Positions 7,251 through 24,286 of a DNA stretch of 64,000 bases are shown here, piece after piece. Below the pieces are notes generated by a model that saw only the letters and a list, made by a program, of their open reading frames with translations, searched no databases and was not told the DNA's origin. Made by a program: the position numbers and the translations under genes. The stretch comes from a virus (lineage: Duplodnaviria; Caudoviricetes): positions 1 to 64,000 of the IMG/VR virus record IMGVR_UViG_3300031998_000057, one strand, 5' to 3'. Numbering within the stretch: the first letter of the stretch is position 1; every line of letters begins with the position of its first letter.

Positions 7251-7642
7251 TCGTCCTCCCTGTCGTAATCATCGTGCGGCTCCGTGCGGAACCACTCGAT
7301 CATGTTCTCCTCACACTCACGCGGACATGAGCAGATTTCAGATACGTCACCGTCGCTGTCTACGCCGTGTATCACGCTGATCTTCTTCCCAACAGCGTTC
7401 ACCGCACGGGCCAACAATGCCGGATAACCGTCTGAGGCCCGCACGACCTTCACGGCATAGCCCGTCTTATCCCCTTGAAATGCGTGGTAGTCCCGCACTT
7501 TCAGCCGCAGCTTCGGCGTTATCGGCAGCTTCATGTCCCAAAACGTCGGGCGGTAGTACGGTGCTTCCGTTTCCGTCACTTCTCCATCTCCTTCCCTTTG
7601 CCCTAATGTAACTCCTCCCACAATGAAAAGCGGCGGTTCCAA
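7247..7642 (-). CDS. hypothetical protein
   Basis: 131-aa ORF overlapping the downstream start. Confidence 0.55.
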
Positions 7643-7931: not shown

Positions 7932-8018
7932 TGCAGACGGCAGGGGTCGAACCTGCGTATTACCTCCCGCCCTTTTCAGAGCTGCCAGCGGTATGCCTTA
8001 CCTCTTGGCTACGTCTGC
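7932..8018 (-). ncRNA. tRNA-like RNA with 33-nt anticodon arm
   Basis: Acceptor GCAGACG/CGTCTGC, D arm GCC..GGC, T arm GCAGG-TTCGACC-CCTGC; enlarged anticodon region. Confidence 0.65.
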
Positions 8019-8084
8019 ATATTTCGGGGAATCCGGCCATTCCCCGCTTTTTCCGCTCCCCACTTAGGCAGGGGGTCGCCGCTG

Positions 8085-8170
8085 TGGAGCCGAGAGGCGG
8101 TGGTGAGCCGCCACGAGACTCAGCCGCGTTGACCGGTCGCGGCCTCGCCCTTCTGCGTCAGGCACTCGGC
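8085..8170 (-). ncRNA. degenerate tRNA-like element ending in T-CCA
   Basis: GCCGAG/CTCGGC acceptor, GCCGCG-9nt-CGCGGC arm, GGCGG-CTCACCA-CCGCC arm, CCA. Confidence 0.45.
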
Positions 8171-8217
8171 GCATATGCCCCCGTCTTTCCGGGGTGTCAG
8201 CCCTTGTACTTCGGGCA

Positions 8218-8374
8218 TACCAACGGCGGGGCTCGAACCCTCACCAAAGCTGGCTATGCTTCGGACACGGATTAGGCTTGTACTTCGCCAAACGGGTTGC
8301 CAGCCCGACGTTACGCCTACCAGGGACATAGACATATAACGCTCCGCTGCTCTCACCACTTGAGCAACATCGGC
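8218..8374 (-). ncRNA. tRNA-like RNA with a 71-nt structured insert replacing the anticodon loop
   Basis: GCCGATG/CGTTGGT acceptor, GCTC..GAGC D arm, GCGGA/TCCGT stem, long variable arm, GGG-TTCGAGC-CCC T arm. Confidence 0.6.
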
Positions 8375-8439
8375 TTATAGTTGCCGTTCACTACCGTTTT
8401 TATGGGTCGTTTGGAACTGCAAAGGTCAACTCTTCCCAG

Positions 8440-8528
8440 TGGCGCAGGCAGCAGGATTTGAACCTGCGGAGCCTTTCGGCCCATCTGTTTTCAGGACAGA
8501 CGCAATAAGCCAGCTCTGCCATGCCCGC
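8440..8528 (-). tRNA. tRNA-Ser(TGA) with C33
   Basis: Cloverleaf with long variable arm, G73, encoded CCA; anticodon loop CC-TGA-AA. Confidence 0.85.
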
Positions 8529-8704
8529 AAGTTGCCTGTCTCTCCAGGCTGTCACGCTTCGTTCTCAGGCTCTCGAAGTCCTGTTGGTCGTCGCGTTCCA
8601 CCGCCGCGCTCCTTATCGGCTTGCCGCTTTGCTTACAGTGTTCAGGTTGGTCTATCGCGTTTTGCCTGCGTCCGGCTTTCACGGATGAGGCGTCCCCCAG
8701 CGTT
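8529..8704 (-). ncRNA. candidate structured ncRNA between two tRNAs
   Basis: No credible ORF; hairpins and motifs shared with neighbouring segments (CGACCAACAGG; TGACA-stem-GRRAGA-stem). Confidence 0.45.
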
Positions 8705-8782
8705 TGGTGGGCCGTCAGGGACTCGAACCCTGATCTTCTCTGCTTTTGAGGCAGCTCCGTCTTCCCATTGCGGCAACGGCCC
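8705..8782 (-). tRNA. tRNA-Leu(CAA)-like with short variable region
   Basis: GGGCCGT/ACGGCCC-A-CCA, loop CT-CAA-AA, T loop TTCGAGT. Confidence 0.75.
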
Positions 8783-9063: not shown

Positions 9064-9088
9064 ATTATACGGATTATTTTTTGGACGG
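9064..9088 (-). promoter_or_regulatory. class II motif CCGTCC-N13-TATAAT
   Basis: Upstream of the small ORF and RNA cluster. Confidence 0.6.
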
Positions 9089-9501
9089 CCTGAATACCAC
9101 CACCATGCTCGGAAACGGCGCGGAATTGTCGCTCCCGCCGAATTTCAGCCGCCCCTTGACGAATCGAACCTCCGCCTGCTTGTAGATGTAATCGTGGAAC
9201 CACCGCGTATCCGTCCGCGCAGGAAGCAGCATGACCACCGTGGCCCCGTTCTTCGCCGCTTCCCACGCTTTCGCTACCCATCGGCCTACCTCACGACCAT
9301 ACGGGGGATTGCACCAACAGCACCCCCCCAATTTTTGGAAAGTCCGTCGTCCTTCGGCGTGTAGTACCGCGCACACTTCGCGTTCTCCGGCAGCGCGGCC
9401 ACGTCAAGCGTGAAGTGAAACTCGGCGTCCAGCTCGTCGAAAAACGCCTGCGGTGTTTCCCATAAGCCCGTCGCGCTCGAAAACATCAAATCCGTGTTCA
9501 C
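9074..9501 (-). pseudogene. phage DNA N6-adenine methyltransferase (phage Dam family), frameshifted in a G7 tract
   Basis: WETPQ..FTLDVAA..DDGL in one frame; WCNPPYG..LLPARTDTRWF in the next; the break is at C7 9323-9329. Confidence 0.85.
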
Positions 9502-9794
9502 TTCTCGTGGCTCCGCTTCGCGCTGTGCAGGAAATCCATGATCTTGTCGCGCTCCTTCTCCAACACCTTGACCTGCTCCAACAGCTCGTCAGCACGGGAG
9601 TACAGAACCTCGCGCAGCCAACCAGGGATCTCTGCCGCACCCTCCAAAGACGGCACATAGCGTTTAAGTGACTTCAACGCCTGCCGGGTCACTACAAGGC
9701 CGTTGCAGCCTTCCACACGCCACCATTCGCTGCGTTCAGGATCACACTCGCCAAGCTCAATGATGAACTTGTCACCTTTCTTAAATTCTGCCAT
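9498..9794 (-). CDS. hypothetical protein
   Basis: 98-aa ORF with RBS. Confidence 0.6.
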   Translation of the reverse strand: MAEFKKGDKFIIELGECDPERSEWWRVEGCNGLVVTRQALKSLKRYVPSLEGAAEIPGWLREVLYSRADELLEQVKVLEKERDKIMDFLHSAKRSHEK

Positions 9795-9798
9795 GCCA

Positions 9799-10110
9799 TC
9801 AATCCCCTTCCATCGTTACCAATCCGTCTTCGTCCACGCTCACACCGAAAATCGCGCCGCCGTCAAACCCTACCGCAGCCAGGGCGTTCCGCCCCCGTAT
9901 CGCCGCGTTCCTGTCCTCAAATATGAACCGTACCTCCGACGGACACTGCGCACCGATCAGGCCCTCCTGCTCCGTCATCAGCTCGATCATCACGCCCAAC
10001 GCCAGCTTGTCCGCCCGACGCATCCGCAAGCCCTTCGCCGGAATACCTACCGCAAACGCAAAGCCTACACGCTCTCCATCCGCCAACCGCTTACCCCTCC
10101 TTCCTCTCAA
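9799..10110 (-). CDS. hypothetical protein
   Basis: ORF in operon; start uncertain. Confidence 0.5.
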   Translation of the reverse strand: MRGRRGKRLADGERVGFAFAVGIPAKGLRMRRADKLALGVMIELMTEQEGLIGAQCPSEVRFIFEDRNAAIRGRNALAAVGFDGGAIFGVSVDEDGLVTMEGD

Positions 10111-10309
10111 ACGCCGCGCAACCAGTCATCCCGCCAACCTTCTTCACCCACTTGCACCGAAAGCAGCAGTAACGGCAGATGTAATGCCCGCGCTTCTTCG
10201 GACACTCCCGCACCAATCCCTCGTGCCATTCATTCCCACACGCTTCACAGACCATCCGATGTGCGAAAACCTTCGCCTGCTTCTTCGCCATCCAATAGCC
10301 AACCCCCAT
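10091..10309 (-). CDS. Zn-finger-like hypothetical protein, first gene of the leftward operon
   Basis: CxxC..C..CxxCC..C..C. Confidence 0.55.
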   Translation of the reverse strand: MGVGYWMAKKQAKVFAHRMVCEACGNEWHEGLVRECPKKRGHYICRYCCFRCKWVKKVGGMTGCAAFERKEG

Positions 10310-11222
10310 TTCCCTTGTCCTGTTATTGATTATACTCAGCCTTTTTTACACACCCATAATCTGCCCCACACCTAACGCCCACCCGCTCCCTCGCCCCTAT
10401 ATACCTAAAAGCGCCCTGCCATCAACCCGGCAAGGCGCTCCTTTTCATCTGTAAACATACCCCCATACCCCACCAACTCAAAAAGGATATTTTTTATAAG
10501 CCCTAAAATCGGCTTTACACGCGCTTTGCACTTTTCAGACGCTAAAACCCACGGCAGACAAATCGAAAACGCAGGAGGGCATTGAAAACCACACGACAGA
10601 CGCTGCTGTAATGCAATGCGGCAACGCAAATGCGATTGTGCGGAATGACGCAGGGAATTGAGCGCGGAAATGAGCTGCGAGGTGGCAGGCTATTTTGCGA
10701 ATAATTGAGGATGGAAGCGGAAAGGCAAAAGCCGAATAATTGAGGAGCGGAATGAGCTACGCGCCGGAGGCGCGTCCTGGCGCGGCGGCTAACTGAAAAG
10801 GTGGGGGGCTGTGTTGCGATTATTGCCTATAATCGAAACATGAGCGCGGCAAACGCGGAGCGGGAGCGGGAGCGGCGCGGCTGATGCTCTGCGGCTGAGC
10901 TGGGCGCGGCATGATGCGCGGCGTGGTATCAAGGGAACACCGGCGGTGGGGTGATGGTTTCCGTTTCGCGGGTTTCCGCCTCTTTCGGTTTTCTGGCAAA
11001 AGGGGCTGCGGGTTTTCGCTCTGCTGGCGGATGGGCTGCGGGGCTGCGGCTGCTGATGCGGGTCCTGGCTCGGCTCGTTTTCGCTGGCTTCCGCTGCTTC
11101 ACGGTTGCGGGGCTTCCGCTATAATCCGCGCTATTATAATATCGACGCCGGGAGCATATCGCGCGCGCGCGAGGGCGGAGCGGCTGCGGGGGCTTGGGCG
11201 GGGCTGCGGGCGGGCATAAAGC

Positions 11223-11251
11223 AAGCCCGCCGGGGTTTTATTCCGGCGGGC
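11223..11251 (-). terminator. hairpin after the sigma-like gene
   Basis: AGCCCGCCGG..CCGGCGGGCT inverted repeat. Confidence 0.55.
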
Positions 11252-11278
11252 TGTGGTGGGCTGCTGCGTGGTGGGCGT

Positions 11279-12034
11279 TTATTTGGCGGCGGCGTATCTC
11301 TCGCGGATGGCCTTAATACGCTTGTCGACGGCCTGACGGCTGAGGTTGACGGCGGGCGCAATGCGGCGGGCGCTGTAGCCTGCGCCCAGGGCGGCGACGA
11401 TCCGCAAGTCGATATCGTCACGGCAGGCGCGGGTGATGCTGTCGCGGATGATGGCGGCGGCCTCCGGGCCGGGGGCAATGGGTTCCGCCGTTCCGCGGGC
11501 GCTGATGTCGATTACATCAAGCTCTTGGCCTTCTTCCGTGACGGTGTGCCGCAGGGCGCTGGCGTTCCGCTTCTCCGCTTCCCTGATGGCCTTTGCCGCT
11601 GCGACGATGGCGCGGCTTGTCATTCGGGCCAGGCTCATGTGCTGCTTGTCGGGGTTATCAAAATAGGCGGTATACAGCCTGATATACGCTTCATGAGCGA
11701 CGGCGGCGAGGTCGTCAGCAAGGCGGGCCGGGCAAACCCAGGTGAAAACGGGGGCCGCCGGGACCCGCTGACCGTTTTTAATGATCGTGCGGGCGTCGTC
11801 GATCCTGTACTCATGGCCGGTCATGCGCATGAGATAGTCATACCGCTCGTTTTCCGGCCAGCTTTCGAAAATCTCGCGGGGGCTGCGGCCGTCCTCCTCC
11901 CAGGCGAGGCGGAGCGCGGCGGCCAGGTTGACGCGGTAGCAGTCGCCCGGATGGGCGGCGGTGATCCTGCGGGCGATGGTATGAGCGCGGGCCATAACGC
12001 GGGCGGCGCGGGCGGTGTTGGTAGTCTTTTCCAT
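11279..12034 (-). CDS. phage ECF-like sigma factor
   Basis: Region-2-like DDL..AHEAYIRLY..; C-terminal HTH GYSARRIAPAVNLSRQAVDKRIKAIR; AAAGGAG RBS. Confidence 0.7.
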   Translation of the reverse strand: MEKTTNTARAARVMARAHTIARRITAAHPGDCYRVNLAAALRLAWEEDGRSPREIFESWPENERYDYLMRMTGHEYRIDDARTIIKNGQRVPAAPVFTWVCPARLADDLAAVAHEAYIRLYTAYFDNPDKQHMSLARMTSRAIVAAAKAIREAEKRNASALRHTVTEEGQELDVIDISARGTAEPIAPGPEAAAIIRDSITRACRDDIDLRIVAALGAGYSARRIAPAVNLSRQAVDKRIKAIRERYAAAK

Positions 12035-12100
12035 TTTTTATAACTCCTTTCGATGTGGGCGGCGGCGCTTCTGGCGCTGCCGTATCTTGATTACACTATG

Positions 12101-12129
12101 ATTATACCACGCTATCATTACATATTCAA
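12101..12129 (-). promoter_or_regulatory. consensus sigmaA promoter of the sigma-like gene
   Basis: TTGAAT-17bp-TATAAT with extended TG. Confidence 0.8.
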
Positions 12130-12167
12130 GCATTTTTTCGGCATTTTCCGAAAAAATTTTGCTCGGC

Positions 12168-12200
12168 GGTAGCCAAAACCGTTTTCCCCGGTTTGGTGTA
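12168..12200 (+). promoter_or_regulatory. class I motif GGTAGCC-N16-GTTTGGT
   Basis: Intergenic copy 1. Confidence 0.75.
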
Positions 12201-12267
12201 GGCGAGGACGAAAAACGACGGGCGGCGGCTGCGGCCCGGAAACAAAAAATCGAACGGAGGCAATACA

Positions 12268-12606
12268 ATGAATAAAATCAACGGCGCGGAGCTTATCGAA
12301 AACACAAGCGCGGCGGGCCGGAGGGCGGCGCGGGCTGCGGCGGCTGCGGCTGGCGCGGGCGGCTGGTCCTCTATCTGGGGCGCGTACAAGGAGCCCAGCG
12401 CGGAAAAGGTCCGGGCCTGGCGTGGCCTGGAGGCGCTGGCGGAGGCGCTGAACGCGGACAGCCTGCGGATCACGGCGGCGAACACTTTCAATTTCTCGGC
12501 GCTGATCCGTTTCCGCGTTGACGGTCGGGCGGCTGTCGGCTATATCACGCGGGACCACCGGCGCTTCGCCTGGGCGGAGGATGCGCCCGCGGCGGCGGCG
12601 GCCTGA
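12268..12606 (+). CDS. hypothetical protein
   Basis: GGAGG RBS, follows a class I motif. Confidence 0.7.
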   Translation: MNKINGAELIENTSAAGRRAARAAAAAAGAGGWSSIWGAYKEPSAEKVRAWRGLEALAEALNADSLRITAANTFNFSALIRFRVDGRAAVGYITRDHRRFAWAEDAPAAAAA

Positions 12607-12725
12607 ACAGGCAACGGAGCCCTGGCGGGGATCGGGATTTTTCCCGGTCCCCGTCTTTTTTTATTTGACGGGGCCGGGGCCGCGTGATAAAATATTTGAA
12701 CAGGCGAAAAATTTTTTTCGGCGCT

Positions 12726-12758
12726 GGTAGCCAAAAGCCGCCGCGCCGGTTTGGTGAT
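12726..12758 (+). promoter_or_regulatory. class I motif
   Basis: Copy 2, N16. Confidence 0.75.
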
Positions 12759-12777
12759 TGAAAAGGAGGCTGAACAC

Positions 12778-13056
12778 ATGGCGAAAGCGAGCGCGGCACG
12801 GATCAAGGCCAATCAGCGGTGGGACGCGCGAGCCTATGACAAGGCGCTGCTGCGGCTGCCGAAGGGAGCACTGGAACAGCTTAAAGCGGCGGCGTCTGAG
12901 GAGGGCGAAAGCCTGAACAGATATATTTTGATTGCCCTGGAGCGGCGGAGCGGCTTAAAGCTCACGCTTGACGGGGAGCTGCCTGGGCCGGGGCCGCGCG
13001 GCCCGCGAAAAGACTACAGAACAGCGGCGAAAAAGACCGGGGACGGCGAAAGCTGA
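12778..13056 (+). CDS. ribbon-helix-helix (Arc-like) DNA-binding protein
   Basis: YDKALLRLPKG..LKAAASEEGESLNRYI. Confidence 0.7.
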   Translation: MAKASAARIKANQRWDARAYDKALLRLPKGALEQLKAAASEEGESLNRYILIALERRSGLKLTLDGELPGPGPRGPRKDYRTAAKKTGDGES

Positions 13057-13080
13057 TCCCCGGAAATTTTTTTGTTTCGC

Positions 13081-13113
13081 GGTAGCCAAAACGAAAAACC
13101 CGTGTTTGGTGTA
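13081..13113 (+). promoter_or_regulatory. class I motif
   Basis: Copy 3, N16. Confidence 0.75.
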
Positions 13114-13159
13114 ATCGGGAAAACAAAACCCGATAATAAATTGAAGGGAGCTATAAAAC

Positions 13160-13444
13160 ATGGCAATAACAAACAATATGATTATTGAAAATGCCCGCGC
13201 AAACCTTATTTCCGATGGGCTGCTTGATCCGGCGCATGAAATCCATACTTTCCAGCGTTGGAAAGCGCTGGGCTACAGCGTGAAAAAGGGAGAACACGCG
13301 ATAGCAAAATTCTCGATCTGGAAGTACGGCGAGCGGCGGAAAAAGGCCGAGGACGGCGGCGAGGAGGAGATCGAGACCGGCGGCTGCTTTATGAAAACGA
13401 GCGCGTTCTTTTCGACGGCGCAAGTGGAGCCGCTGAAAGCGTGA
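13160..13444 (+). CDS. ArdC N-terminal-like ssDNA-binding (antirestriction-associated) protein
   Basis: TFQRWKALGYSVKKGE..IW..FF..QVE. Confidence 0.65.
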   Translation: MAITNNMIIENARANLISDGLLDPAHEIHTFQRWKALGYSVKKGEHAIAKFSIWKYGERRKKAEDGGEEEIETGGCFMKTSAFFSTAQVEPLKA

Positions 13445-13453
13445 GACGGAGAC

Positions 13454-13491
13454 GGGGCCGGGGGAGCTTTCCCCTGGCCCTTTATTTTTTT
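13454..13491 (+). terminator. Rho-independent terminator
   Basis: GGGCCGGGGGA-GCTT-TCCCCTGGCCC plus T tract. Confidence 0.75.
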
Positions 13492-13522
13492 GCCCTGACG
13501 CGGGGAAATTTTTTTCGGCGCT

Positions 13523-13555
13523 GGTAGCCGTTTTGAAAATTCCGCGTTTGGTGTA
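13523..13555 (+). promoter_or_regulatory. class I motif
   Basis: Copy 4, N16. Confidence 0.75.
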
Positions 13556-13590
13556 GGTGAAAGCAAACGAAAGAACAGGAGGCAATAACA

Positions 13591-13788
13591 ATGAAGATTG
13601 AACAGACGCAGGCATTCCGTTTAACCGTGGATCACATGGTTAAGCTGGGAAACGATCACAAATTTGACAAAGAGTTTCCATTTTCGGAGTTTTTGTCAAG
13701 GACTAAGACTCTGCGCGGCGCAGAGTTTGCGCGCAAGGCGGCTGCAAAAGCGAACCAACGTTTACGCTGCAAACTGTATGTTGCTTGA
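13591..13788 (+). CDS. hypothetical protein
   Basis: GGAGG RBS. Confidence 0.6.
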   Translation: MKIEQTQAFRLTVDHMVKLGNDHKFDKEFPFSEFLSRTKTLRGAEFARKAAAKANQRLRCKLYVA

Positions 13789-13797
13789 TGCTGGAGA

Positions 13798-13835
13798 CGG
13801 GGCTGGGGGATCATTCCCCAGCCCCTTTATTTTTT
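13798..13835 (+). terminator. Rho-independent terminator
   Basis: GGGGCTGGGGGA..TCCCCAGCCCC plus T tract; homologous to the 13454 terminator. Confidence 0.75.
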
Positions 13836-13928
13836 GCCCTGGCGCGGAAAATATTTTTCGGAACAGCTTAATTTTTACGCTTTCGCTGTTTGGTATAGAC
13901 GAAAGCAAAAACAAGAAGGCAATACACA

Positions 13929-14171
13929 ATGAAAATGTTTGCAAAAGCCGTTGAGGGAAAAGAGTTTATTTACAGCCGTGAAAGCGCTCACCAGGTAAGC
14001 GAGAGAAGCGCAAATATGATTTGCGCGGCGCTGAACGAAAAGCGCTGGGGGCTAAAAGACGGGCAAATCTGGCACGTCTACGATTGCGAATGGTACGAAC
14101 AGGAATACACCGGCGCGGCGTATCAATCTTTTGAACGGCGCAACGGCGGCCTGGTGGAGAGGATAATCTGA
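13929..14171 (+). CDS. hypothetical protein
   Basis: RBS plus ATG. Confidence 0.65.
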   Translation: MKMFAKAVEGKEFIYSRESAHQVSERSANMICAALNEKRWGLKDGQIWHVYDCEWYEQEYTGAAYQSFERRNGGLVERII

Positions 14172-14250
14172 ACACACGGAGCGCGGCGGGCCGGGGCAAT
14201 AATCCCGGCCGGGGCCGCGCCTGAACACAAAACGAACGGAGGAACGAAAA

Positions 14251-14415
14251 ATGAAAAATCTGCTGAGCATGATCGGCTTTGTTGCGTTTCTGTCCCTGCT
14301 GCCCCTGGGCGGCTGGATTGAGAACGACGGCGGCCTGCCTGCGCTGCTGACGGCGGCGGCGGTGATCCTTGTGCTGGCCGTGACGGTCTACGCGGCGAAC
14401 AGGACGAAAAAATAA
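14251..14415 (+). CDS. small two-helix membrane protein (54 aa)
   Basis: MKNLLSMIGFVAFLSLLPLGG..ALLTAAAVILVLAVTVYAANRTKK; GGAGG RBS; not in the ORF track. Confidence 0.6.
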   Translation: MKNLLSMIGFVAFLSLLPLGGWIENDGGLPALLTAAAVILVLAVTVYAANRTKK

Positions 14416-14426
14416 TTTCCCGCGTT

Positions 14427-14459
14427 GGTAGCCAAAGGCGGCCGCGCCGGTTTGGTGTA
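14427..14459 (+). promoter_or_regulatory. class I motif
   Basis: Copy 5, N16. Confidence 0.75.
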
Positions 14460-14498
14460 ATCGGGCGAGGCGATCCCCGCCTGAACACAATACATTGA

Positions 14499-15200
14499 AT
14501 GGAGGAACACAAAATGACGCACGAAAAGAGATACGAGCTTGTCTGTGAAATGCTGAGAGCCTACGACATGGCGAACGGCTACGATGCCGCGGAGCAAGTA
14601 ATCAAGAACGCGAGAGAATGGGCCGGGCATGGTACGCTTCCCTTTTATGGGGCTGCCGCTTCCCTGCTGGTGGAGGCGATGGAGGGCATGAACAAAACAA
14701 GGACTGGAACCGCACAGACCGCCGCACTGAACAGGATTTACAAATCCGCTTGCAGCATAGCAAGGCGGGGCTTTGATGGCGTTTTCCCGTCTGCTGGGCG
14801 CTGGGCGCTCTGCGACGGATACCGCTTTGTGCGCCTGAACGTCAAGCCTGAGAGCTATCCCGAACGGGAGAGTACAATCAACCTGGAGCAGGCGATCCCG
14901 GTGGCGAGCCGCTATTCTGAGACCGTGGAGCTTCCCACCGTGGCGGAAATCAAGGCGCATCTGGCCGACGTAAAATCCCGCTTTGGGCGCAAGTGGCGCA
15001 ACTATTCTGAGTCTCACATCGAGGCGCTTCCCGGCTGGTGGTGCAATCCCGAATACCTGCTGGACATGGTACAGGCGCTTCCCGGCGGAACGGCGCATCT
15101 TCCGAAGAACAGCATTTCCCCGCTCTACTATGAGAGCCCGGACGGGGATGCCCTGCTGCTTCCCTGCCGTCATCCCGTCACGGCGGCGGCTGCCGCCTGA
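14499..15200 (+). CDS. hypothetical protein; C-terminus weakly beta-clamp-like
   Basis: NPEYLLD..P..SPL..G.ALLLPCR. Confidence 0.6.
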   Translation: MEEHKMTHEKRYELVCEMLRAYDMANGYDAAEQVIKNAREWAGHGTLPFYGAAASLLVEAMEGMNKTRTGTAQTAALNRIYKSACSIARRGFDGVFPSAGRWALCDGYRFVRLNVKPESYPERESTINLEQAIPVASRYSETVELPTVAEIKAHLADVKSRFGRKWRNYSESHIEALPGWWCNPEYLLDMVQALPGGTAHLPKNSISPLYYESPDGDALLLPCRHPVTAAAAA

Positions 15201-15242
15201 GAGAACGTACAAGCCGCGCCGGGCGGGTCCCGGCGCGGCTGC

Positions 15243-15267
15243 CCGTCCGAAAATCCAACGGTATAAT
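15243..15267 (+). promoter_or_regulatory. class II motif CCGTCC-N13-TATAAT
   Basis: Intergenic, after a GC hairpin. Confidence 0.65.
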
Positions 15268-15287
15268 TCAGAACAGGAGGAAAAGAA

Positions 15288-15698
15288 ATGTTTGAGAATT
15301 GGCAATGGGTAATCGGCCCTGAAGGGTATCACGGCTTCGCAAAATCAGCGCTGAAGGACGGCGTATGCCCCTATACCGGCAAGACCGCCGCCGACTATGA
15401 GGCAGAGGGCTGCACAATCGTTTCGGAAGCGGAATTTGACCGCATTGCTGCCGAATATGAGCGCAGCTTGACCGATGACTGGAAGGAGATCACGGAGGAA
15501 CAGTACGAGGACGCGCTGAACGTGCTTCCCCCGCTGCAATGGTACGGCGGCGGCTTTTTCTGCATGGAGGCATATTTCAGCACCCTGCACAGCTTTTATC
15601 AAGAGGTGGACGGTAAATACTTCACTTCCCTGCAATCCGTCACGACGCCCCGCGCCGATATTATGAACAACCTTATGAAATGGAGGGAAAGCGCATGA
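15288..15698 (+). CDS. DUF1419-like protein
   Basis: EITEEQY..LNVLPP..W..F..E..GKY. Confidence 0.55.
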   Translation: MFENWQWVIGPEGYHGFAKSALKDGVCPYTGKTAADYEAEGCTIVSEAEFDRIAAEYERSLTDDWKEITEEQYEDALNVLPPLQWYGGGFFCMEAYFSTLHSFYQEVDGKYFTSLQSVTTPRADIMNNLMKWRESA

Positions 15699-15871
15699 GC
15701 GGCAAACGCTTCCGCCTTTGGGCGCTGCTGCAAAGCAATTTGGCCCTGAGTGACAAGATAGATCATGCCCGCGATCCTGAACACAAGGCGCGGCTGCAAC
15801 GGCACTATGACGAGATCGAGGCCGAAATCAAGATGATCCAAAACGTTTTACAGGAGGAGGTAAACACATGA
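15695..15871 (+). CDS. hypothetical protein
   Basis: ATGA-coupled ORF. Confidence 0.5.
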   Translation: MSGKRFRLWALLQSNLALSDKIDHARDPEHKARLQRHYDEIEAEIKMIQNVLQEEVNT

Positions 15872-16249
15872 AAACGATCAACGTCAATCCCCCTGGGGGA
15901 CTCGCAGCGGGAACAGTGGCACAGCGTCGTGAACATCCTGCGGCGCATGGGCGGCGATATGACCGCCGATGGCCGCGCCGGTCTCTGCGACGAGCTTGAC
16001 CGCTATATCGACTATGCCGAGGATATGCGGGAGGAAATCAAGGAACAGCCGGAGCCGGACGGCGCGGAGCAGTGCATGACCGCCGAGGATGCGCTGGCGA
16101 TCATGGAAAAGCACGTCGGCAACTGGCGCGGTTTGGAGCAGAAGGCCGCGCAGAACGGCGACTATCACGCCGCGCAGAGCTACGCGGATATGGCCTATGC
16201 TGGGGCCGCGCTGAAAGACGAGATCGAGCGCGAGCTTTATCACGGCTGA
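15868..16249 (+). CDS. hypothetical protein with an apparent frameshift at CCCCCTGGGGG (15889-15899)
   Basis: RBS and ATG at 15868 are out of frame with the protein-like ORF ending at 16249. Confidence 0.5.
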
Positions 16250-16264
16250 ACAGGAGGCGACCGC

Positions 16265-16435
16265 ATGAGAATAATCAAGGCGAACATGGAAAACGGCGAC
16301 TACATCATCACCCGCATCAACGTAGCGCCGGAAGAGATCGAAAAATACTATATAGGCAAGCCGTACATATACGAGGACCCGAACCGCGGTGAGACCGGGC
16401 GGACGCGCTTTGTGAGCGTTGAGTTTTTAGATTGA
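16265..16435 (+). CDS. small hypothetical protein (56 aa)
   Basis: GGAGG RBS; MRIIKANMENGD.. Confidence 0.55.
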   Translation: MRIIKANMENGDYIITRINVAPEEIEKYYIGKPYIYEDPNRGETGRTRFVSVEFLD

Positions 16436-16451
16436 AGGAGGAACACAAAAA

Positions 16452-16769
16452 ATGACTATTACGAGAGAGATCAACGGCAGCCCCGTCACGTTCGAGCTTT
16501 CGAGCGCCGAGCTTCGCGCCGCCTACTGCGAACAGCAAGCGCAGTTTGACCGTGAGGACGTGACGCTGATCCTGGACGAGTACGCCGACGATGGCGAGTC
16601 CGGGGAACAGGACTTCATCGACTACTACGGAGCGCCGATTGCCAAAGCCCACGAGCTTCTGCCGCAGATAGTCGAAAAATACCGCGATATCCGCGACGAC
16701 GGCGAATGCGCCCTGTCCTGGCGCGAGGCCGTGGACATGGCATTGGAATATTGGCTGAAGGAGGCTTGA
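16452..16769 (+). CDS. acidic hypothetical protein
   Basis: RBS plus ATG. Confidence 0.65.
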   Translation: MTITREINGSPVTFELSSAELRAAYCEQQAQFDREDVTLILDEYADDGESGEQDFIDYYGAPIAKAHELLPQIVEKYRDIRDDGECALSWREAVDMALEYWLKEA

Positions 16770-16776
16770 GAACACG

Positions 16777-16968
16777 ATGCCGCCTTATGAACAGCTTGCC
16801 GCGCAGCTTTGCGGCGCGATCCGAACCTTTTCCGAGCGCCCGGAGGCATTGGATAACTTTGAAAGCTATCTGTCGTACTGCTTCCCCTGCTGGTGGGAGA
16901 AGTGGGTGAACACGCCGGACGGCTTGGCCGCAGAGCTTGAGCACTTCGCAAACATGGAATTTTCGTGA
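16777..16968 (+). CDS. hypothetical protein
   Basis: RBS plus ATG. Confidence 0.6.
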   Translation: MPPYEQLAAQLCGAIRTFSERPEALDNFESYLSYCFPCWWEKWVNTPDGLAAELEHFANMEFS

Positions 16969-16974
16969 ACAGGA

Positions 16975-17007
16975 GGTAGCCAAAACGCCGCATTACAGTT
17001 TGGTGTA
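16975..17007 (+). promoter_or_regulatory. class I motif
   Basis: Copy 6, N16. Confidence 0.75.
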
Positions 17008-17015
17008 TGCGGGGC

Positions 17016-17044
17016 TTGAAACACAGCCCCGCTTATGCTATGAT
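17016..17044 (+). promoter_or_regulatory. sigmaA-type promoter
   Basis: TTGAAA-17bp-TATGAT with TG extension, in tandem with class I copy 6. Confidence 0.6.
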
Positions 17045-17087
17045 ACTTTATAGGACTTTTGAACACATCGAAAGGAGCAAAACACAC

Positions 17088-17315
17088 ATGAACCGCTACA
17101 GTTACAAAGAACTTCGCGCTGCTGCCGTTTCCCCTACGGCCACGCCGGAGGATATAAATGCCTTTGGGGAATGGTTTGAACTCTACGGCCACGAAAACCC
17201 CGACTTCTGGAACGGCGAATATTGGGACGCCGACGACGGCATGAGGCTTTTCCCCGTCTATACTGAGCCGGACGAGTATGGCGATATGGAGATCGTCGGC
17301 TATGAATTTAGATAG
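17088..17315 (+). CDS. acidic hypothetical protein
   Basis: AAAGGAG RBS. Confidence 0.65.
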   Translation: MNRYSYKELRAAAVSPTATPEDINAFGEWFELYGHENPDFWNGEYWDADDGMRLFPVYTEPDEYGDMEIVGYEFR

Positions 17316-17327
17316 GAGGCGCGAAGA

Positions 17328-17666
17328 ATGACAATTTCGGAATTGAAGAGTGAACTTCGGATTGCCCCTGACGATTATTGGGAAGTTATGGAAGCGGAGC
17401 TTCCGCTGCCGGAAACGCTTGCACAATTCGCCGAGGCATGGAATAATCCCGCGCTGAACAGTGAAGGAACTTTTGCAGATAACCTTGCGGACGGCGCTGT
17501 GCAGGACGGAAAGCCCTTTTTCGGAGCCTACACATCGATCACGGTCGATTATGATGACTATGACAAGTATTTTTGCGACGGCTGTGCGCCTAATGAAATC
17601 AGAGACACATTTCCCAGGGCGTTAATTGCAATAGAGCCGCAGAAATCGGAGGAGGCCGCCGAATGA
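17328..17666 (+). CDS. acidic hypothetical protein
   Basis: GGAGG RBS. Confidence 0.65.
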   Translation: MTISELKSELRIAPDDYWEVMEAELPLPETLAQFAEAWNNPALNSEGTFADNLADGAVQDGKPFFGAYTSITVDYDDYDKYFCDGCAPNEIRDTFPRALIAIEPQKSEEAAE

Positions 17667-18070
17667 CACACGAGAACAGTGGTATTATCGACTTCAACGC
17701 CAAGCGCGGCGTCCGGTCGGAGGACTTCGCGGACATCGGCGACTACGCCGCCGCGAAAGCGGAGGAGAACGCTGCCTTTTGCGGCAAGGCGCTGAACAGC
17801 GAAAACCTTGATCGTCTGAACACGATCCGCGACTGCTGCGCGAAAATTGCCGAACTGGACGCGGACGTGCGTTTTATAAATTTCCCGCCGGACAGCAGGG
17901 AGCGCAACGGCATCATGCAGATCAACGTCCCCGGCCTGTATATGGCTTTCGACAAGCGCATTACGCGGCTTTTTTCCCGCATCTTCGCCGAGGCAGACGA
18001 TTTTGGCGTCGTGGAAACGGACGACGGCCTGAACTTCACCTTCGGCGTGAGGGACATTTGGGACGATTAA
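17663..18070 (+). CDS. hypothetical protein
   Basis: ATGA overlap, RBS. Confidence 0.65.
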   Translation: MTHENSGIIDFNAKRGVRSEDFADIGDYAAAKAEENAAFCGKALNSENLDRLNTIRDCCAKIAELDADVRFINFPPDSRERNGIMQINVPGLYMAFDKRITRLFSRIFAEADDFGVVETDDGLNFTFGVRDIWDD

Positions 18071-18085
18071 AAAAAGAACAGACCC

Positions 18086-18118
18086 GGTAGCCGTTTTCGG
18101 AAAAGCGGGTTTGGTGTA
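18086..18118 (+). promoter_or_regulatory. class I motif
   Basis: Copy 7, N16. Confidence 0.75.
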
Positions 18119-18186
18119 TACAGAGGCAAGCGCGAGGCAAACGCCCCGCGCTTTTCTTGTGCCTAAAATTGAAAGGAGAATACACA

Positions 18187-19419
18187 ATGTACTATCAGAT
18201 CAACCGCGAGACTCAAAAGCTGGAGCTTATCTTCGACAAGGCTGAATATCAGGCATTGCCCGACGCGGACAAGCGTGAGATCAAAAGCAATTTCCTTTTC
18301 GCCCGCAGCATCGGCGGCTGGGTGAGCCGCGCAAAGTGGCCGAACACGGGCCGAGCGGAGCGCGTGGCGCAGCGCCTGGGCGCTGAGAACAGGGGCAAGA
18401 CCGGCGAGGCCCTGACCTTTGCCGAGCAGCAGGAGCGCAAGGCGGAACGCGCCGAGGCCCGCGCCGAACGCATGGACGCGAGATCGGACAGGGCCGCTGC
18501 CGAGGGGACGCGCCTGCAAAAGCCCATCGAGGATATGCGCGGCGATATTGCGTTCTTCACGCAGCCGAACATCAACAGCAGCGCGGGCCGCGCCTTTACG
18601 AACAGGCGGAACAGGATGTTTGCCGCCTATGAGCGCGGCTGGGAGGAGTTCAAGAAATCGGAATACTATGCGGAACGCGCTGAGACTGCCCGCCGCACCG
18701 CCGCCGAAGCGAAAATGCCCACCGACAAGGGCTTTTGCGAGCGCCGCATTGCCGAGGCGGAAAAGTCCATTCGGGAACAGAAGAAGCAGATCGACACCTA
18801 CCGCAAGGCCATCGAGCAGACCGAAAAGGGTCTGGAATACGTCGGCGGCCCCGGCGAGTGGTACTGCCATTACACCCCCGACTACACCGACAAGCTCCGC
18901 GAGTGGCTTGAAAACGCCGAGGAGCGCATGGAACAGGCCATGAGCAAGGCCATTTACTACCGCGAGGCCCTTGAAGCCCTGGGCGGCATCCAGTACAGCC
19001 GCGAAAACGTCAAACCCGGCTACGTCGTCCTCGTCGGCTCCCACCTGGGCGAAGTCGATTCCTGCGGCCCGAAGAACATCACCTATAAGGTAACGACCTG
19101 CGGCACGACCTTTTACCTGAAGGCCAGCTACGGTGAAATCACCGAGATCGTCAGTGCCGAGGAGCGCAAGCCTGAACAGCACCCGTTCAAGGTGGGCGAG
19201 GTTTTCGAGCCGATCCTGTGGGACGGCGACCGCTTCACAAAAACCCCCGTGGAGATCGTCAAGGCCACGGAGAAAAGCGTCACGGTTCAGAACAGGAACA
19301 CCGGCGAGAAGTACGTCCGCAAGCCTCAGAAGTACGACGGAGGCCGCAGCGAAGCCGCCGAGTGGGTATTCTATATCGACTCCGACTCCTACCGTTCCCG
19401 CTGCGCCAAACCCGCCTGA
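18187..19419 (+). CDS. DUF3560-like protein
   Basis: ERKAERAEARAER coiled segment, ..AFFTQP..RNRM.. Confidence 0.65.
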   Translation: MYYQINRETQKLELIFDKAEYQALPDADKREIKSNFLFARSIGGWVSRAKWPNTGRAERVAQRLGAENRGKTGEALTFAEQQERKAERAEARAERMDARSDRAAAEGTRLQKPIEDMRGDIAFFTQPNINSSAGRAFTNRRNRMFAAYERGWEEFKKSEYYAERAETARRTAAEAKMPTDKGFCERRIAEAEKSIREQKKQIDTYRKAIEQTEKGLEYVGGPGEWYCHYTPDYTDKLREWLENAEERMEQAMSKAIYYREALEALGGIQYSRENVKPGYVVLVGSHLGEVDSCGPKNITYKVTTCGTTFYLKASYGEITEIVSAEERKPEQHPFKVGEVFEPILWDGDRFTKTPVEIVKATEKSVTVQNRNTGEKYVRKPQKYDGGRSEAAEWVFYIDSDSYRSRCAKPA

Positions 19420-19420
19420 C

Positions 19421-19445
19421 CCGTCCAAAAAAGAAAAATGATAAT
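19421..19445 (+). promoter_or_regulatory. class II motif variant CCGTCC-N13-GATAAT
   Basis: In tandem with class I copy 8. Confidence 0.5.
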
Positions 19446-19458
19446 AAATTGCTGGAGC

Positions 19459-19491
19459 GGTAGCCATATCCCGCTCCCGCGGTTTGGTAAC
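19459..19491 (+). promoter_or_regulatory. class I motif
   Basis: Copy 8, N16. Confidence 0.75.
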
Positions 19492-19531
19492 AGTGACCGC
19501 GCAAGCGGAACACATTGAAAGGAGTTACAGC

Positions 19532-19744
19532 ATGAACACGACGACAAAACTGACCTACATCGGCATGGATTCCTGGTCGCGCCCCGTCTACAAGGACGAA
19601 GCCGGGACCCTTTGGAAAGACACAGACCCCCGTCGAGACCGCGCTCCCGACCTTTGCTCCGCTATGTTCAACGCCTTCGACGGCGAGCCGAACAATCCTT
19701 TTCACGGCATCCCCGAATTTATCCCCGAACGGATCACATGGTAA
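19532..19744 (+). CDS. hypothetical protein
   Basis: AAAGGAG RBS; GMDSWSRPVY..FDGEP. Confidence 0.65.
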   Translation: MNTTTKLTYIGMDSWSRPVYKDEAGTLWKDTDPRRDRAPDLCSAMFNAFDGEPNNPFHGIPEFIPERITW

Positions 19745-19761
19745 ATTGAAAGGAGAACACA

Positions 19762-20133
19762 ATGAGCACCATCACTTTTACAGCGAAGCCCCTCACGAAG
19801 CCGGAGGGCATGACGATCAAGGCCGAGCTTGCCTGGGCCTATTTCGATTTCAATAACGGCGGTTGGCTGGCCGCGAAGATGGGCGACGATTCCATCGTCA
19901 TCACCGACGAATCCGCCGATTTTTTCAACGGGCAGACTTTCCCCGACGAGGACGCCTTTGCCGAGTGGTTGGAACAGGACGCCGCCATGCAGCTTGACGA
20001 TCATCCCTATGAGTTTTTGTCAGACAGCGGCGCGATCCTGCCCGCCCTGCTGACCGAGGCCGTCCAGCGTGAAATCCTGAACGCCATCAATCAAATCGAC
20101 GACACGAGAAAGGAGAACACCCCCGATGCTTAA
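19762..20133 (+). CDS. acidic hypothetical protein
   Basis: AAAGGAG RBS. Confidence 0.65.
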   Translation: MSTITFTAKPLTKPEGMTIKAELAWAYFDFNNGGWLAAKMGDDSIVITDESADFFNGQTFPDEDAFAEWLEQDAAMQLDDHPYEFLSDSGAILPALLTEAVQREILNAINQIDDTRKENTPDA

Positions 20134-20674
20134 CGACAACACGCTCCACGACGAAATCGCCTTTCAGGGCAAAGCCCTCACGGTGGACACCTGCTTCCTG
20201 GGCGAATACATGAACAATCCCTATGAGACCATGGCCCTGCTGCCCGGCGGCAAAGAGATCGAGTGCGTCCGCTCCGCCACGGAGGAGGACGCCCGCCGCG
20301 TCCACGCCATCATGCTCAAAAAGTACAGGGAACAGGCCGCGCCCCTCACGGGGAAGTATTTGAAGCTGAAGCTGGACCTGCTGGCCGCCTATGCCGAGAC
20401 GGAACACATCGAACAGACCGAGGACGGCGGCACCTGCAACTTTGATGCGCCGGTCCTGCACCTGAACCGCTGGGACGGGAACAAGATCAAACAGGCGGCA
20501 AAGGAGGCGGGCGGCAGCGCTTTCAAATGGACATGGGGCAGCCGCGTCATGGGCTGGGTATTCTCCCCGCGCAGCTCCGGCCAGGGCAACCGCCGCAGCC
20601 GCCGCGCCGAGGCCATCAGTGCCGCTCTCAAAGCCAAAGGCTACAACACCGGTATGTATTACGCTATGGACTGA
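20126..20674 (+). CDS. hypothetical protein
   Basis: DGGTCNFD..GQGNRR..AE. Confidence 0.65.
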   Translation: MLNDNTLHDEIAFQGKALTVDTCFLGEYMNNPYETMALLPGGKEIECVRSATEEDARRVHAIMLKKYREQAAPLTGKYLKLKLDLLAAYAETEHIEQTEDGGTCNFDAPVLHLNRWDGNKIKQAAKEAGGSAFKWTWGSRVMGWVFSPRSSGQGNRRSRRAEAISAALKAKGYNTGMYYAMD

Positions 20675-20695
20675 ACATAAAAAAGCCGAACGCTC

Positions 20696-20728
20696 GGTAG
20701 CCATTCCCCCTATCGGGCGTTTGGTATA
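20696..20728 (+). promoter_or_regulatory. class I motif
   Basis: Copy 9, N16. Confidence 0.75.
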
Positions 20729-20778
20729 ACTGAACGCGGCGGCGACTGCCGCACATACATTGAAAGGAGTAAAACATA

Positions 20779-21405
20779 ATGAACAGAACCATCAAACTGA
20801 GCGACAAGCTCACGGGCGCTCTCGAAGCCCACGACATCTACGTTACGTCCGCTGACGAATACAACGGCGGCATCGACGTAGAATTGGAATGGTACAGCCC
20901 CGCAGGAGAGGATTTTGTTTTCACCTTCCACTTTGACGGCTCCGCTTCCGATTTCGTTGACAACTTCCGCAGCTACGCGGAGGACTTCGACCCCGACGAA
21001 CACGCCGAAATGTGGGTTGAACACCGCGGCAAAAATGGCTGCCCGAACTCTATCCGTGACCTGATCGACGACGCGGACGCCATCAATGACTTTCTGAACA
21101 GCGTCGCCCACGATCTGATTGACGCATTGGAGCGTGGCGAGCTGTCCAACGCCTACCTGCTGACCGAGGAACAGATCAGGGACGATTGGGAAGCCGCGCT
21201 CGAAAGCGATATGGACTACAGCGAGATCGCCCAGGCTATCGAATGGGGCTTCACCCGCGAGGACATTATCACGCTCATGGAGCTGCACCGTGAGAACAAG
21301 CACCGCCGCAAGATCGAGGACCTTTTGACCGACTGCAACTATCACACGGAATGTAAAGCCTGGTCCGCGGGCGATTACACGTTCCGCGACGTATGGGAGG
21401 AGTGA
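20779..21405 (+). CDS. acidic hypothetical protein
   Basis: AAAGGAG RBS, 208 aa. Confidence 0.7.
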   Translation: MNRTIKLSDKLTGALEAHDIYVTSADEYNGGIDVELEWYSPAGEDFVFTFHFDGSASDFVDNFRSYAEDFDPDEHAEMWVEHRGKNGCPNSIRDLIDDADAINDFLNSVAHDLIDALERGELSNAYLLTEEQIRDDWEAALESDMDYSEIAQAIEWGFTREDIITLMELHRENKHRRKIEDLLTDCNYHTECKAWSAGDYTFRDVWEE

Positions 21406-21435
21406 CCGCTGGGGCGGCCTTTGGCCGCCCGTCCC

Positions 21436-21460
21436 CCGTCCGAAAAATCACTGCTATAAT
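21436..21460 (+). promoter_or_regulatory. class II motif CCGTCC-N13-TATAAT
   Basis: After hairpin GGGCGGCC-TTT-GGCCGCCC. Confidence 0.65.
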
Positions 21461-21493
21461 CAAAACACAAACACATGAAAGGAGCTATAACCA

Positions 21494-21883
21494 ATGCCAT
21501 TCACGCAAGATGAGCTTTTCATTCTTTCCGACGCGCTTCTTCTCACCATCAGCGAAAACAGCGAAGCCATGAAGCATATCACGAGCCAGGACGCAATCGA
21601 AGCGCTGAAAAAATACCTGACCGTCCTGCGCGACCTCAACAGCAAGGTTTGTTCTCTCAGCGAGTCTCAGCTTGCCGCCGACTTCCGTGCGCAGGAACAG
21701 CCCCGCAAAACGCCCCGCGTCGTCATTCACGTTGAGGACGGCATGGTGCAGAACGTTTACGCCGATGCCGACGTGGAAGTGGACGTCTGCGATTTGGACG
21801 ATGACACCCCGGATGGTTTTGACAGCAGCCGCACACGGCTCCACGCGGTTGTTACCTGTGGCGTGTACAAGCCCGTGTATTGA
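21494..21883 (+). CDS. hypothetical protein
   Basis: AAAGGAG RBS. Confidence 0.65.
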   Translation: MPFTQDELFILSDALLLTISENSEAMKHITSQDAIEALKKYLTVLRDLNSKVCSLSESQLAADFRAQEQPRKTPRVVIHVEDGMVQNVYADADVEVDVCDLDDDTPDGFDSSRTRLHAVVTCGVYKPVY

Positions 21884-21902
21884 GAAAGGATGAACAGACC
21901 GC

Positions 21903-22292
21903 ATGAACACCTATATGGAAGTCTATGAGCTTTTTAGCTCGGACGGTCTGCGTCCCTGCTGCGGTGAAACTCCGCTTTTTAAGGCGTTCGATTTTTCGAG
22001 CGGCACACTGTTTGCCGTAGAATGCCGCAAAAACGGCCACATCCACAACACGGGGCTTCACAAGACCCGCGAGGCCGCCGTCAAACTCTGGAACAGCGCG
22101 AAAGAAACGACCCACGGACTGCTTCTCCCGACGACGGCTCTTGTGACCGAGGACGATTACGGCGTTACCCGCTGTGGAGCCTGCGGCGGCGAAATTCTCT
22201 GCGGAGACACCGGCGATATGCCGAACTTTTGCCCCGCCTGCGGGAAAGAATTGGACTATGCACTTTACGAACAGGAGGAACAGCCCACATGA
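21903..22292 (+). CDS. Lar-like / Zn-ribbon protein
   Basis: LRPCCG..EAAVKLWN; CGACG..NFCPACG. Confidence 0.6.
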   Translation: MNTYMEVYELFSSDGLRPCCGETPLFKAFDFSSGTLFAVECRKNGHIHNTGLHKTREAAVKLWNSAKETTHGLLLPTTALVTEDDYGVTRCGACGGEILCGDTGDMPNFCPACGKELDYALYEQEEQPT

Positions 22293-22507
22293 TCGACACG
22301 AACACCACCTACGGCGTATCTTTTCGCTGCTATTTCCCCGATGATGGCGGCACGGCGACGCGCTACAACAGCCATTATCAGTGTCTCCCACTCGACGAGC
22401 TGCCGACATGGATCGAGGCGTACCGCTTCACGCATCCGAACTGCCTCTCCGTGACGGCAAAGGTCTGGTTCAGCGACTGCGCCGCAAAGCGCGGCGGCGA
22501 GGACTGA
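22289..22507 (+). CDS. hypothetical protein
   Basis: GGAGG RBS, ATGA overlap. Confidence 0.55.
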   Translation: MIDTNTTYGVSFRCYFPDDGGTATRYNSHYQCLPLDELPTWIEAYRFTHPNCLSVTAKVWFSDCAAKRGGED

Positions 22508-22532
22508 ACACGCACATAGAAAGGAGAACAGC

Positions 22533-22835
22533 ATGGAACAGAACAGGCTTTACACAAGCACGATGTACAAGGCCGTTTCCCCGAAAGATGACTGCGGCCT
22601 TGAAAGCCCCCGTGACACCCTCGGGGAGCTGGTGGACATGATCTCCCGCTTAGAGAGCCGCGCCCAGGAGCAGGGCTATCCCCCGCAGGAATGGCTGATC
22701 GTGCGCGTCCGCACGAACACGATCTTCGATGGGGGCCGCTTCCACTACCGCAGTACGATTGAGGAAGCCGTCGCTCTCTACGGCAAGGACGGCAAGCTGC
22801 GCTATTTGAACGGCGAGGAATGGAAAATTGGCTGA
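22533..22835 (+). CDS. hypothetical protein
   Basis: AAAGGAG RBS. Confidence 0.6.
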   Translation: MEQNRLYTSTMYKAVSPKDDCGLESPRDTLGELVDMISRLESRAQEQGYPPQEWLIVRVRTNTIFDGGRFHYRSTIEEAVALYGKDGKLRYLNGEEWKIG

Positions 22836-22854
22836 ACAAAACCGAAAATTCCCC

Positions 22855-22883
22855 TTGCAATATCACTTGATCCGTGGTATACT
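22855..22883 (+). promoter_or_regulatory. sigmaA-type promoter
   Basis: TTGCAA-17bp-TATACT with TG extension. Confidence 0.65.
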
Positions 22884-23062
22884 TTTCATAGTGAGTGTTG
22901 CAGCACTCGCTTACAAAGCAGTATCGCGGACACGGTACGGCATTATTATCGCCTTTTATGCCCCTGCAAGGGCATTTTAGGGCTATGCTTTGCATAGCAG
23001 CAACCGCCGCCTCATGTGTCCGCATGGGGCGGCGTGTCTTTTATGCAAGGGAGGCAAACAAG

Positions 23063-24266: not shown

Positions 24267-24286
24267 ATCGAAAGGAGGCACACACT

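Follow-up and report, generated by a model that had tools for sequence, protein, structure and literature searches.

Phage T4 reprogrammes the host RNA polymerase through promoters that keep the host -10 hexamer and carry a private box in place of the -35 element, and we know of almost no reader of such a box outside T4-like phages. At class II promoters, such as those served by lambda CII at pRE and by PhoB at the pho boxes, the activator site likewise overlaps or replaces the -35. Here we analyzed 64,000 nucleotides (the window) of the virus record IMGVR_UViG_3300031998_000057 (Duplodnaviria; Caudoviricetes), the window being the first 64 kb of a record of 72,531 bp that is 92% complete by CheckV, and within it a group of predicted promoters, hereafter class 2, in which the box CCGTCC stands 13 bp upstream of TATAAT. 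Our comparisons suggest that class 2 is a distinct, lineage-conserved set of predicted promoters that would be served by the host primary sigma factor together with a protein at the box, a reading to which we assign a probability of about one half.

The middle promoters of T4 demand an excellent -10 and place the MotA box at a distance of 12 +/- 1 bp from it (PMC2988021); with 13 bp at the present sites, the MotA-box-like geometry proposed in a preliminary description of this DNA holds. As in T4 middle promoters, a stringent host-type -10 is combined with a phage-class box, centered near -30, that replaces the -35. The box sequences differ, with (a/t)(a/t)(a/t)TGCTTtA in T4 and GTCC followed by an A-tract here, and T4 encodes both MotA and AsiA, whereas a six-frame search of the 72.5-kb genome (92% complete) gave no match to MotA (PF09158) or AsiA (PF09010) at E<=1. 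The present phage is moreover temperate, has a Firmicute-type host and carries few sites, against about 60 in T4. Because neither the box sequence nor the two defining proteins match, class 2 would, by analogy, work in the manner of sigma appropriation or of a class II activator site rather than as a member of the MotA/AsiA system. It resembles class II promoters in its good -10, in a -35 that is poor or missing and in a putative activator site abutting the -10-proximal region, and it resembles a PhoB/OmpR-type half-site in joining a conserved core to an A/T-rich minor-groove segment, about 11 bp in all. CII and PhoB differ in that they bind repeats (TTGC-N6-TTGC and two 11-bp units, respectively), whereas most class-2 sites have a single unit; no regulator homologous to theirs was identified.

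Motif, spacing and enrichment

The three exact copies of CCGTCC-N13-TATAAT that had been placed at 9064-9088 (minus strand; P9064), 15243-15267 (plus strand; P15243) and 21436-21460 (plus strand; P21436) were confirmed, as was the GATAAT variant at 19421-19445 (plus strand; P19421), which is the sole one-mismatch match to the motif. No exact match arose in 100 dinucleotide-preserving shuffles. The whole genome (72,531 bp) holds 109 copies of CCGTCC and 24 of TATAAT, and in the genome-wide pattern search and enrichment test that had been proposed, covering all hexamers at spacings of 8-21 before the 24 TATAAT, the motif was enriched and the pair of CCGTCC and 13 ranked first with three copies. 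None of 300 shuffles gave any hexamer-spacing pair with three copies, and when 24 random anchors were drawn in the real sequence three copies were reached in 32 of 5000 trials, for a look-elsewhere P of ~0.006 in which the shared A-tract is not counted. Additionally, RAAAA, a pentamer with an intergenic frequency of 0.009, directly follows the box at every box-bearing site. Because the shuffle and random-anchor tests and this independent pentamer agree, we do not regard the motif as a product of chance. Anchored on the -10, the alignment of the four box-bearing sites reads CCGTCC, [A/G]AAAA[A/T], seven variable bases and [T/G]ATAAT.

The sites had been said to lack any TTGACA-like -35. This stands for the three exact sites, which match TTGACA at 2-3 of 6 positions with spacers of 15-19 and were not listed by a consensus scan for canonical TTGACA-like promoters; it does not stand for P19421, where CTGACC matches 4/6 at a spacing of 18. 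A TGn element is present only at P21436 among the four. Canonical TTGACA-like-N17 promoters with TGn occur in the same phage, including one before the gene of its own sigma factor (see below); the host sigma would therefore be ordinary and class 2 distinct. Every class-2 site is co-oriented with its downstream genes or, at 9064, with a tRNA cluster, and at the gene-heading sites the -10 hexamers lie 19-33 nt 5' of start codons with good Shine-Dalgarno sequences. The further claim that all sites are intergenic needs one correction, in that the box and A-tract at P9064 overlap the 3' end of a frameshifted Dam-like methylase open reading frame (ORF), namely its final codons and stop (9074-9076). 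At the level of sequence, these features support the proposal of a promoter class of its own that combines a host-type -10 with the lack of a -35. An explanation at the RNA level was rejected: Rfam has no family at the class-2 sites, and the upstream hairpins are not common to all of them.

Two variants align with class 2 from the -10 and lack the box. The first, at 10329-10353 (minus strand; P10329), is as previously described, with a different hexamer and the same -10 and A-tract (GTGTGT-AAAAAAGGCTGAG-TATAAT); it lies at the head of the minus-strand operon and has its A-tract position, -10 and leader (AACAGGA) in common with P15243. The second, at 13113-13137 (plus strand), reads AATCGG-GAAAACAAAACCC-GATAAT and shares GATAATAAATTG with P19421; its function is doubtful, and it may be inert, because it overlaps the -10 of an ECF-type promoter (see below).

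Class 2 in a related phage

The loci compared with this phage, relatives and other contigs alike, carry L numbers. Neither INPHARED phages nor PLSDB plasmids contained a relative at the DNA level. The relatives found in IMG/VR through the proteins of flanking genes (L001-L072; <=56% identity) have neither class 2 nor the second promoter class described below and are hence uninformative. Pattern scans for CCGTCC[R/N]AAAA-N8-TATAAT in IMG/VR, GTDB genomes and metagenomes gave 12 single matches in IMG/VR and 95 single matches across all phyla in GTDB genomes, which is the chance level, and none of these encodes a relative of the phage's proteins. A host regulon was considered and set aside, as no plausible host genome in GTDB accumulates matches; the host may be unsampled. 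Among the matches listed, the metagenome scan returned three contigs with two matches each (L265, L268 and L271). L265 and L268 were rejected as relatives, their paired matches being internal repeats of one unrelated element. L271 (JAEIGA010000582.1:1-7620; GC 57%) is a true relative, encoding homologs of g20126 (77% identity, the highest), g17663, g16452 and g15929.

On the plus strand of the 7.6 kb of L271 there are four TATAAT hexamers, of which three belong to GTCC-N13-TATAAT and the fourth to a canonical TTGCAA-N17-TATAAT. The L271 site at 6403-6427 is identical to P19421 at 26 of 27 positions, with TATAAT for GATAAT, between flanks that cannot be aligned. The site at 68-92 (GAGTCC-AAAAAAGCGCGGC-TATAAT) is the ortholog of P21436, the homology running from exactly GTCC through the -10 and the leader, with none upstream and a different gene downstream. 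The third site, at 7315-7339 (CCGTCC-AAAAATGTTTGGG-TATAAT), stands behind the g20126 homolog and a GC hairpin, at a junction where the present phage has an ECF-type promoter (see below) instead. No gene downstream of the L271 sites has a Pfam match. Conservation of the spacing in homologous phages had been named beforehand as a test of the proposal, and the 13 nt are kept at all three L271 sites, so that the box lies exactly 13 bp from the -10 at 7/7 sites in the two phages; the -10 is TATAAT at six of the seven and GATAAT at one. The core consensus across both phages is (CC)GTCC-RAAAAW-N7-TATAAT. Its relaxed form, GTCC-RAAA-N9-TANNNT, occurs three times in this genome, three times in L271 and not at all in 1.93 Mb of other phage loci.

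The second promoter class behaves differently in this comparison. The phage encodes a sigma factor resembling the extracytoplasmic function (ECF) family (11279-12034, minus strand; Pfam PF07638, E 4e-6), and the ten promoters of the form GGTAGCC-N16-GTTTGGTRTA between 12168 and 24267 (plus strand; class 1 in our regular-expression list) are its regulon. The ECF-type promoters of L271, five copies of GGTTGCC-N16-GGCGTATA at 776-806, 2251-2281, 3884-3914, 4891-4921 and 6326-6356, differ in both elements, and neither phage (this one or the 7.6 kb of L271) carries the other's form, from which it appears that promoter and sigma specificity have drifted together. Like class 2, the ECF class occupies the same genome block and the same cassette-head positions and is lineage-specific; it differs in its elements and spacing, and it co-varies with the phage whereas class 2 does not. 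Because the ECF-type promoters changed in L271 and class 2 did not, the phage ECF sigma appears excluded as the reader of class 2. The sequences instead suggest a reader that was conserved between the two phages while the specificity of the private sigma drifted. The alignment of the ECF-sigma family found no match in IMG/VR, the metagenomes of the Joint Genome Institute (JGI) or GTDB genomes; among the databases searched, relatives occur only in Logan/ENA assemblies.

The same alignments bear on the notion that the box has no function at all, the sites being copies of one mobile promoter-leader cassette in which only the -10 matters. A leader is indeed common to P21436 and L271:68-92, the spacer of P19421 recurs in full in L271:6403-6427, and P10329 lacks the box and yet resembles an operon start. 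The left edge of the homology between P21436 and L271:68-92, however, falls exactly at GTCC, and sites that are not orthologous retain GTCC and the A-tract together with the -10 at its 13-nt register, amid unrelated flanks and unrelated spacer beyond the A-tract. We therefore think it improbable, at about one in ten, that the box is a passenger.

Candidate readers of the box

In the explanation that we favor, the host primary-sigma holoenzyme would recognize the perfect -10 hexamer, and the 11-bp box formed by GTCC and the A-tract would stand, at about -31 to -21, where sigma region 4 has no -35. A protein on the box, either phage-encoded and common to both phages or host-encoded, would most likely supply or assist the upstream contact, acting like an activator of the class II or sigma-appropriation type. 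Class 2 would thereby give the tRNA cluster, the minus operon and two sub-operons of the plus-strand block a regulatory input separate from the ECF sigma. We infer that transcription starts at these sites, that sigmaA is used, that an activator binds the box and that the outcome is activation rather than repression or tuning. Several points weigh against this explanation. There are only seven box-bearing sites in two phages, and two of those in L271 are orthologous to sites of this phage, for which shared ancestry may explain part of the conservation. The box may not be essential, because the 10329 and 13113 variants keep the A-tract and the -10 without GTCC. Some sites might work unaided, namely P21436 with its TGn and P19421 with its 4/6 -35-like element at 18 nt, and repression would be as plausible an effect of a protein at -31 to -21.

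That last point leads to the strongest competitor, in which the box is an operator through which a repressor, such as an Arc-like ribbon-helix-helix protein (12778-13056) or another small phage protein, shuts off weak promoters consisting of a -10 only. The box occupies DNA that RNA polymerase has to cover, and the Arc-like protein is encoded within the ECF regulon. A second CCCGTCC at 21428-21434, directly 5' of P21436, forms a tandem direct repeat with the box (21428-21441), and at 38846-38870 the sequence forms a perfect inverted repeat; both arrangements are typical of repeat-binding repressors. Against an operator, most sites have a single copy of the box and, with neither a -35 nor TGn, should be too weak to need repression; furthermore, a distance to the -10 that is fixed at 13 bp is more readily explained by cooperation with polymerase than by simple occlusion. 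We consider repression unlikely. The inverted repeat itself is a perfect 12-bp hairpin (CCCCCGTCCGAAAATCGGACGGGGG; minus strand; -29.1 kcal/mol, z -7.6) between two late genes, whose 5' arm and loop reproduce the box region of P21436 without a mismatch for 14 nt; it represents either a palindromic second form of the box or merely a stabilizing hairpin.

Two conserved blocks at a fixed distance, in a phage that already uses one private sigma, could also be read as the target of a second alternative sigma holoenzyme, of phage or host origin, for which CCGTCC would be the -35 and TATAAT the -10. Sigma70-family factors use a gap of 16-18 bp, and the 13 bp found here is far shorter, too short for two-element recognition by this family. 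No domain of sigma region 2 turned up in a six-frame search of the genome, the -10 matches the primary-sigma consensus exactly, and class 2 did not diverge in L271 when the ECF specificity did. We regard this as the least probable of the explanations considered.

The preliminary description had put forward, as the activator, a phage protein that joins sigma region 4 to a C-terminal domain of the RNA polymerase alpha subunit (sigma4-alphaCTD; 6534-7250, minus strand). Its two domains are clear (PF04545, E 9e-19; PF03118, E 3e-21; with matches to solved structures), and sigma4 on the hexamer and alphaCTD on the A-tract might together redirect the host polymerase. At the positions through which bacterial alphaCTD contacts DNA, the aligned residues are retained in the alphaCTD part. 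The consensus of the proximal UP subsite is AAAAAARNR, and several A-tracts (AAAAAAGAA, AAAAAAGCG) fit it; the fit holds at 2-3 sites and places the tract at about -25 to -17, in the spacer and not upstream of a -35. By our own reading, the opposite strand of the core is a T-tract followed by TGGAC(G), 4/6 to TTGACA. Additionally, three low-GC IMG/VR phages (L179, L182 and L185), which have only the sigma4-alphaCTD gene in common with this phage, form a separate group with a shifted box of their own, a T-tract with TTCGCA-N14-TATAAT. Listed as T-tract + TTCGCA(R)-N13/14-TATAAT, it occurs in 3-5 copies per phage, at 2091, 3032, 4579, 11695 and 12159 in L179, at 6992, 12565, 14602 and 16276 in L185 and at 256, 835 and 1938 in L182, whereas control loci have TTGACA-N17 instead.

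The opposing evidence led us to drop this protein as the obvious candidate. Its sigma4 recognition helix is identical to that of the TTGACA-reading primary sigmas and is the consensus of the family (4232 representatives at E<=1e-10); TTGACA-like targets are therefore predicted, not CCGTCC, which in the forward direction matches TTGACA at only 2/6 positions. The class-2 motif is absent from the 323 kb that flank 21 homologs with both domains. The protein has neither a sigma2 domain nor a core-binding part, and its own gene lies on the same strand as two promoters of the class-2 type, P10329 and P9064, and 3' of both. That sigma4-alphaCTD reads the box in this manner is thus a slim prospect. Nor do we rate much higher the broader scheme in which sigma4-alphaCTD, or another lineage-conserved small phage protein, would dock on the GTCC and A-tract box and replace the -35 contact, with sigma4 on the opposite-strand GGAC and alphaCTD on the A-tract; it has roughly the same low standing. 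If true, it would mean sigma appropriation independent of MotA and AsiA in Firmicutes phages, achieved with copies of the promoter-reading modules of the host polymerase itself.

Other candidates for the protein at the box are a cysteine-rich zinc-ribbon protein of 72 aa (10091-10309), whose gene is the first of the minus operon, and the Arc-like protein, for which position or fold family is the support, and a host factor is equally possible. The genome gave no match at E<=1 to the phage activator families known from the late promoters of Mu (Mor/C; PF08765) and P2 (Ogr/Delta; PF04606). The boxes of Spo0A, CtsR, CodY and PurR were tried, and none fits the class-2 box without an insertion.

Genomic setting and significance of class 2

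The gene map is heuristic and serves for orientation only. A minus-strand block from 10.3 kb down to 1 kb encodes methylases, an SNF2 helicase, a dUTPase and the sigma4-alphaCTD protein; a plus-strand block at 12.2-26.1 kb consists of small genes; and the minus strand at 26-47 kb carries structural genes. We consider the phage temperate because it encodes an S24 CI-like repressor, a Cro-like helix-turn-helix protein and an integrase at 67.5-70.3 kb.

Within the plus-strand block, 14 intergenic gaps are at least 79 nt long. Ten have an ECF-type promoter and an eleventh has a degenerate copy only; one has a canonical promoter only; exactly two (15201-15287 and 21406-21493) have class 2 only, each opening with a strong GC hairpin that lacks a U-tract; and one (19420-19531) has both, class 2 being followed 13 nt on by the ECF type. 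No GGTAGCC-N16-GTTTGGT element overlaps a class-2 site. Because the gaps are divided in this way between class 2 and the ECF type, class 2 appears to take promoter positions in the array and may mark cassettes that are not driven by the ECF sigma.

In the first of the gaps with class 2 only, the P15243 box (15243-15248) lies 2 nt 3' of a 12-bp hairpin (15212-15240; -29.9 kcal/mol, z -2.9), and its -10 (15262-15267) lies 20 nt 5' of the ATG at 15288, with AGGAGG between, at the head of six small genes (15288-16968). In the second, an 8-bp hairpin (21412-21430; -19.6 kcal/mol) stands just 5' of P21436, which heads four small genes (21494-22835). The proteins encoded just 5' of these two sites are not paralogs. 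In the gap with both types, P19421 lies 13 nt 5' of the ECF-type -35 at 19459, the two promoters standing in tandem. Neither the genes downstream of the class-2 sites nor the well-conserved g20126 could be given a function from Pfam, PHROGs or the ESM Atlas.

On the minus strand, P9064 comprises the box at 9083-9088, the A-tract at 9077-9082 and TATAAT at 9064-9069. On its 3' side are a doubtful 60-aa ORF and then, on the same strand, a tRNA-Leu (8705-8782), a tRNA-Ser (8440-8528) and a third tRNA (7932-8018) that is called by Rfam without an ARAGORN match. The cluster (7932-8782) flanks on both sides a tRNA-like element (8218-8374) reported in the preliminary description, and behind it lies the operon with the sigma4-alphaCTD gene, a helicase and a methylase.

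Several further features accompany the block. A palindrome, TTTTTTCGG-N6-CCGAAAAAA, lies at 12133-12156 between the promoter of the sigma gene and the first ECF-type promoter, and A3T7-type tracts (AAATTTTTTTCGG), which look like UP elements, stand 5' of several ECF-type -35s (class-1 sites 12706, 13062, 13499 and 13845). Few genes occupy the roughly 920 nt (10354-11278) that separate the promoter of the minus operon from the ECF sigma gene; this stretch has repeats rich in GC (GGGGCTGCGG) and carries AATAATTGAGGA in duplicate, and it might be an origin or a non-coding RNA. The genome holds 33 copies of the heptamer CTGAACA where about 7 would be expected, with many sites on the plus strand at 12603-25920; the copies are mostly on the coding strand, and their TGA is often the stop codon of a plus-block gene. 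Many plus-block genes (14490-25730, plus strand) share the translation-start context ATTGAAAGGAG, and the sequence after the -10 of P19421 resembles a decayed copy of this context, which suggests cassette shuffling. The array cassettes of small genes are probably anti-defense.

The L271 comparison separates a fast-evolving pair of sigma and promoter from a stable box and points to a conserved factor, phage- or host-encoded, at the latter. A box so short and sharply defined is directly testable. Class 2, standing beside an ECF-sigma regulon and ordinary promoters, would give this uncultured gut or rumen phage lineage a transcription programme with three inputs.

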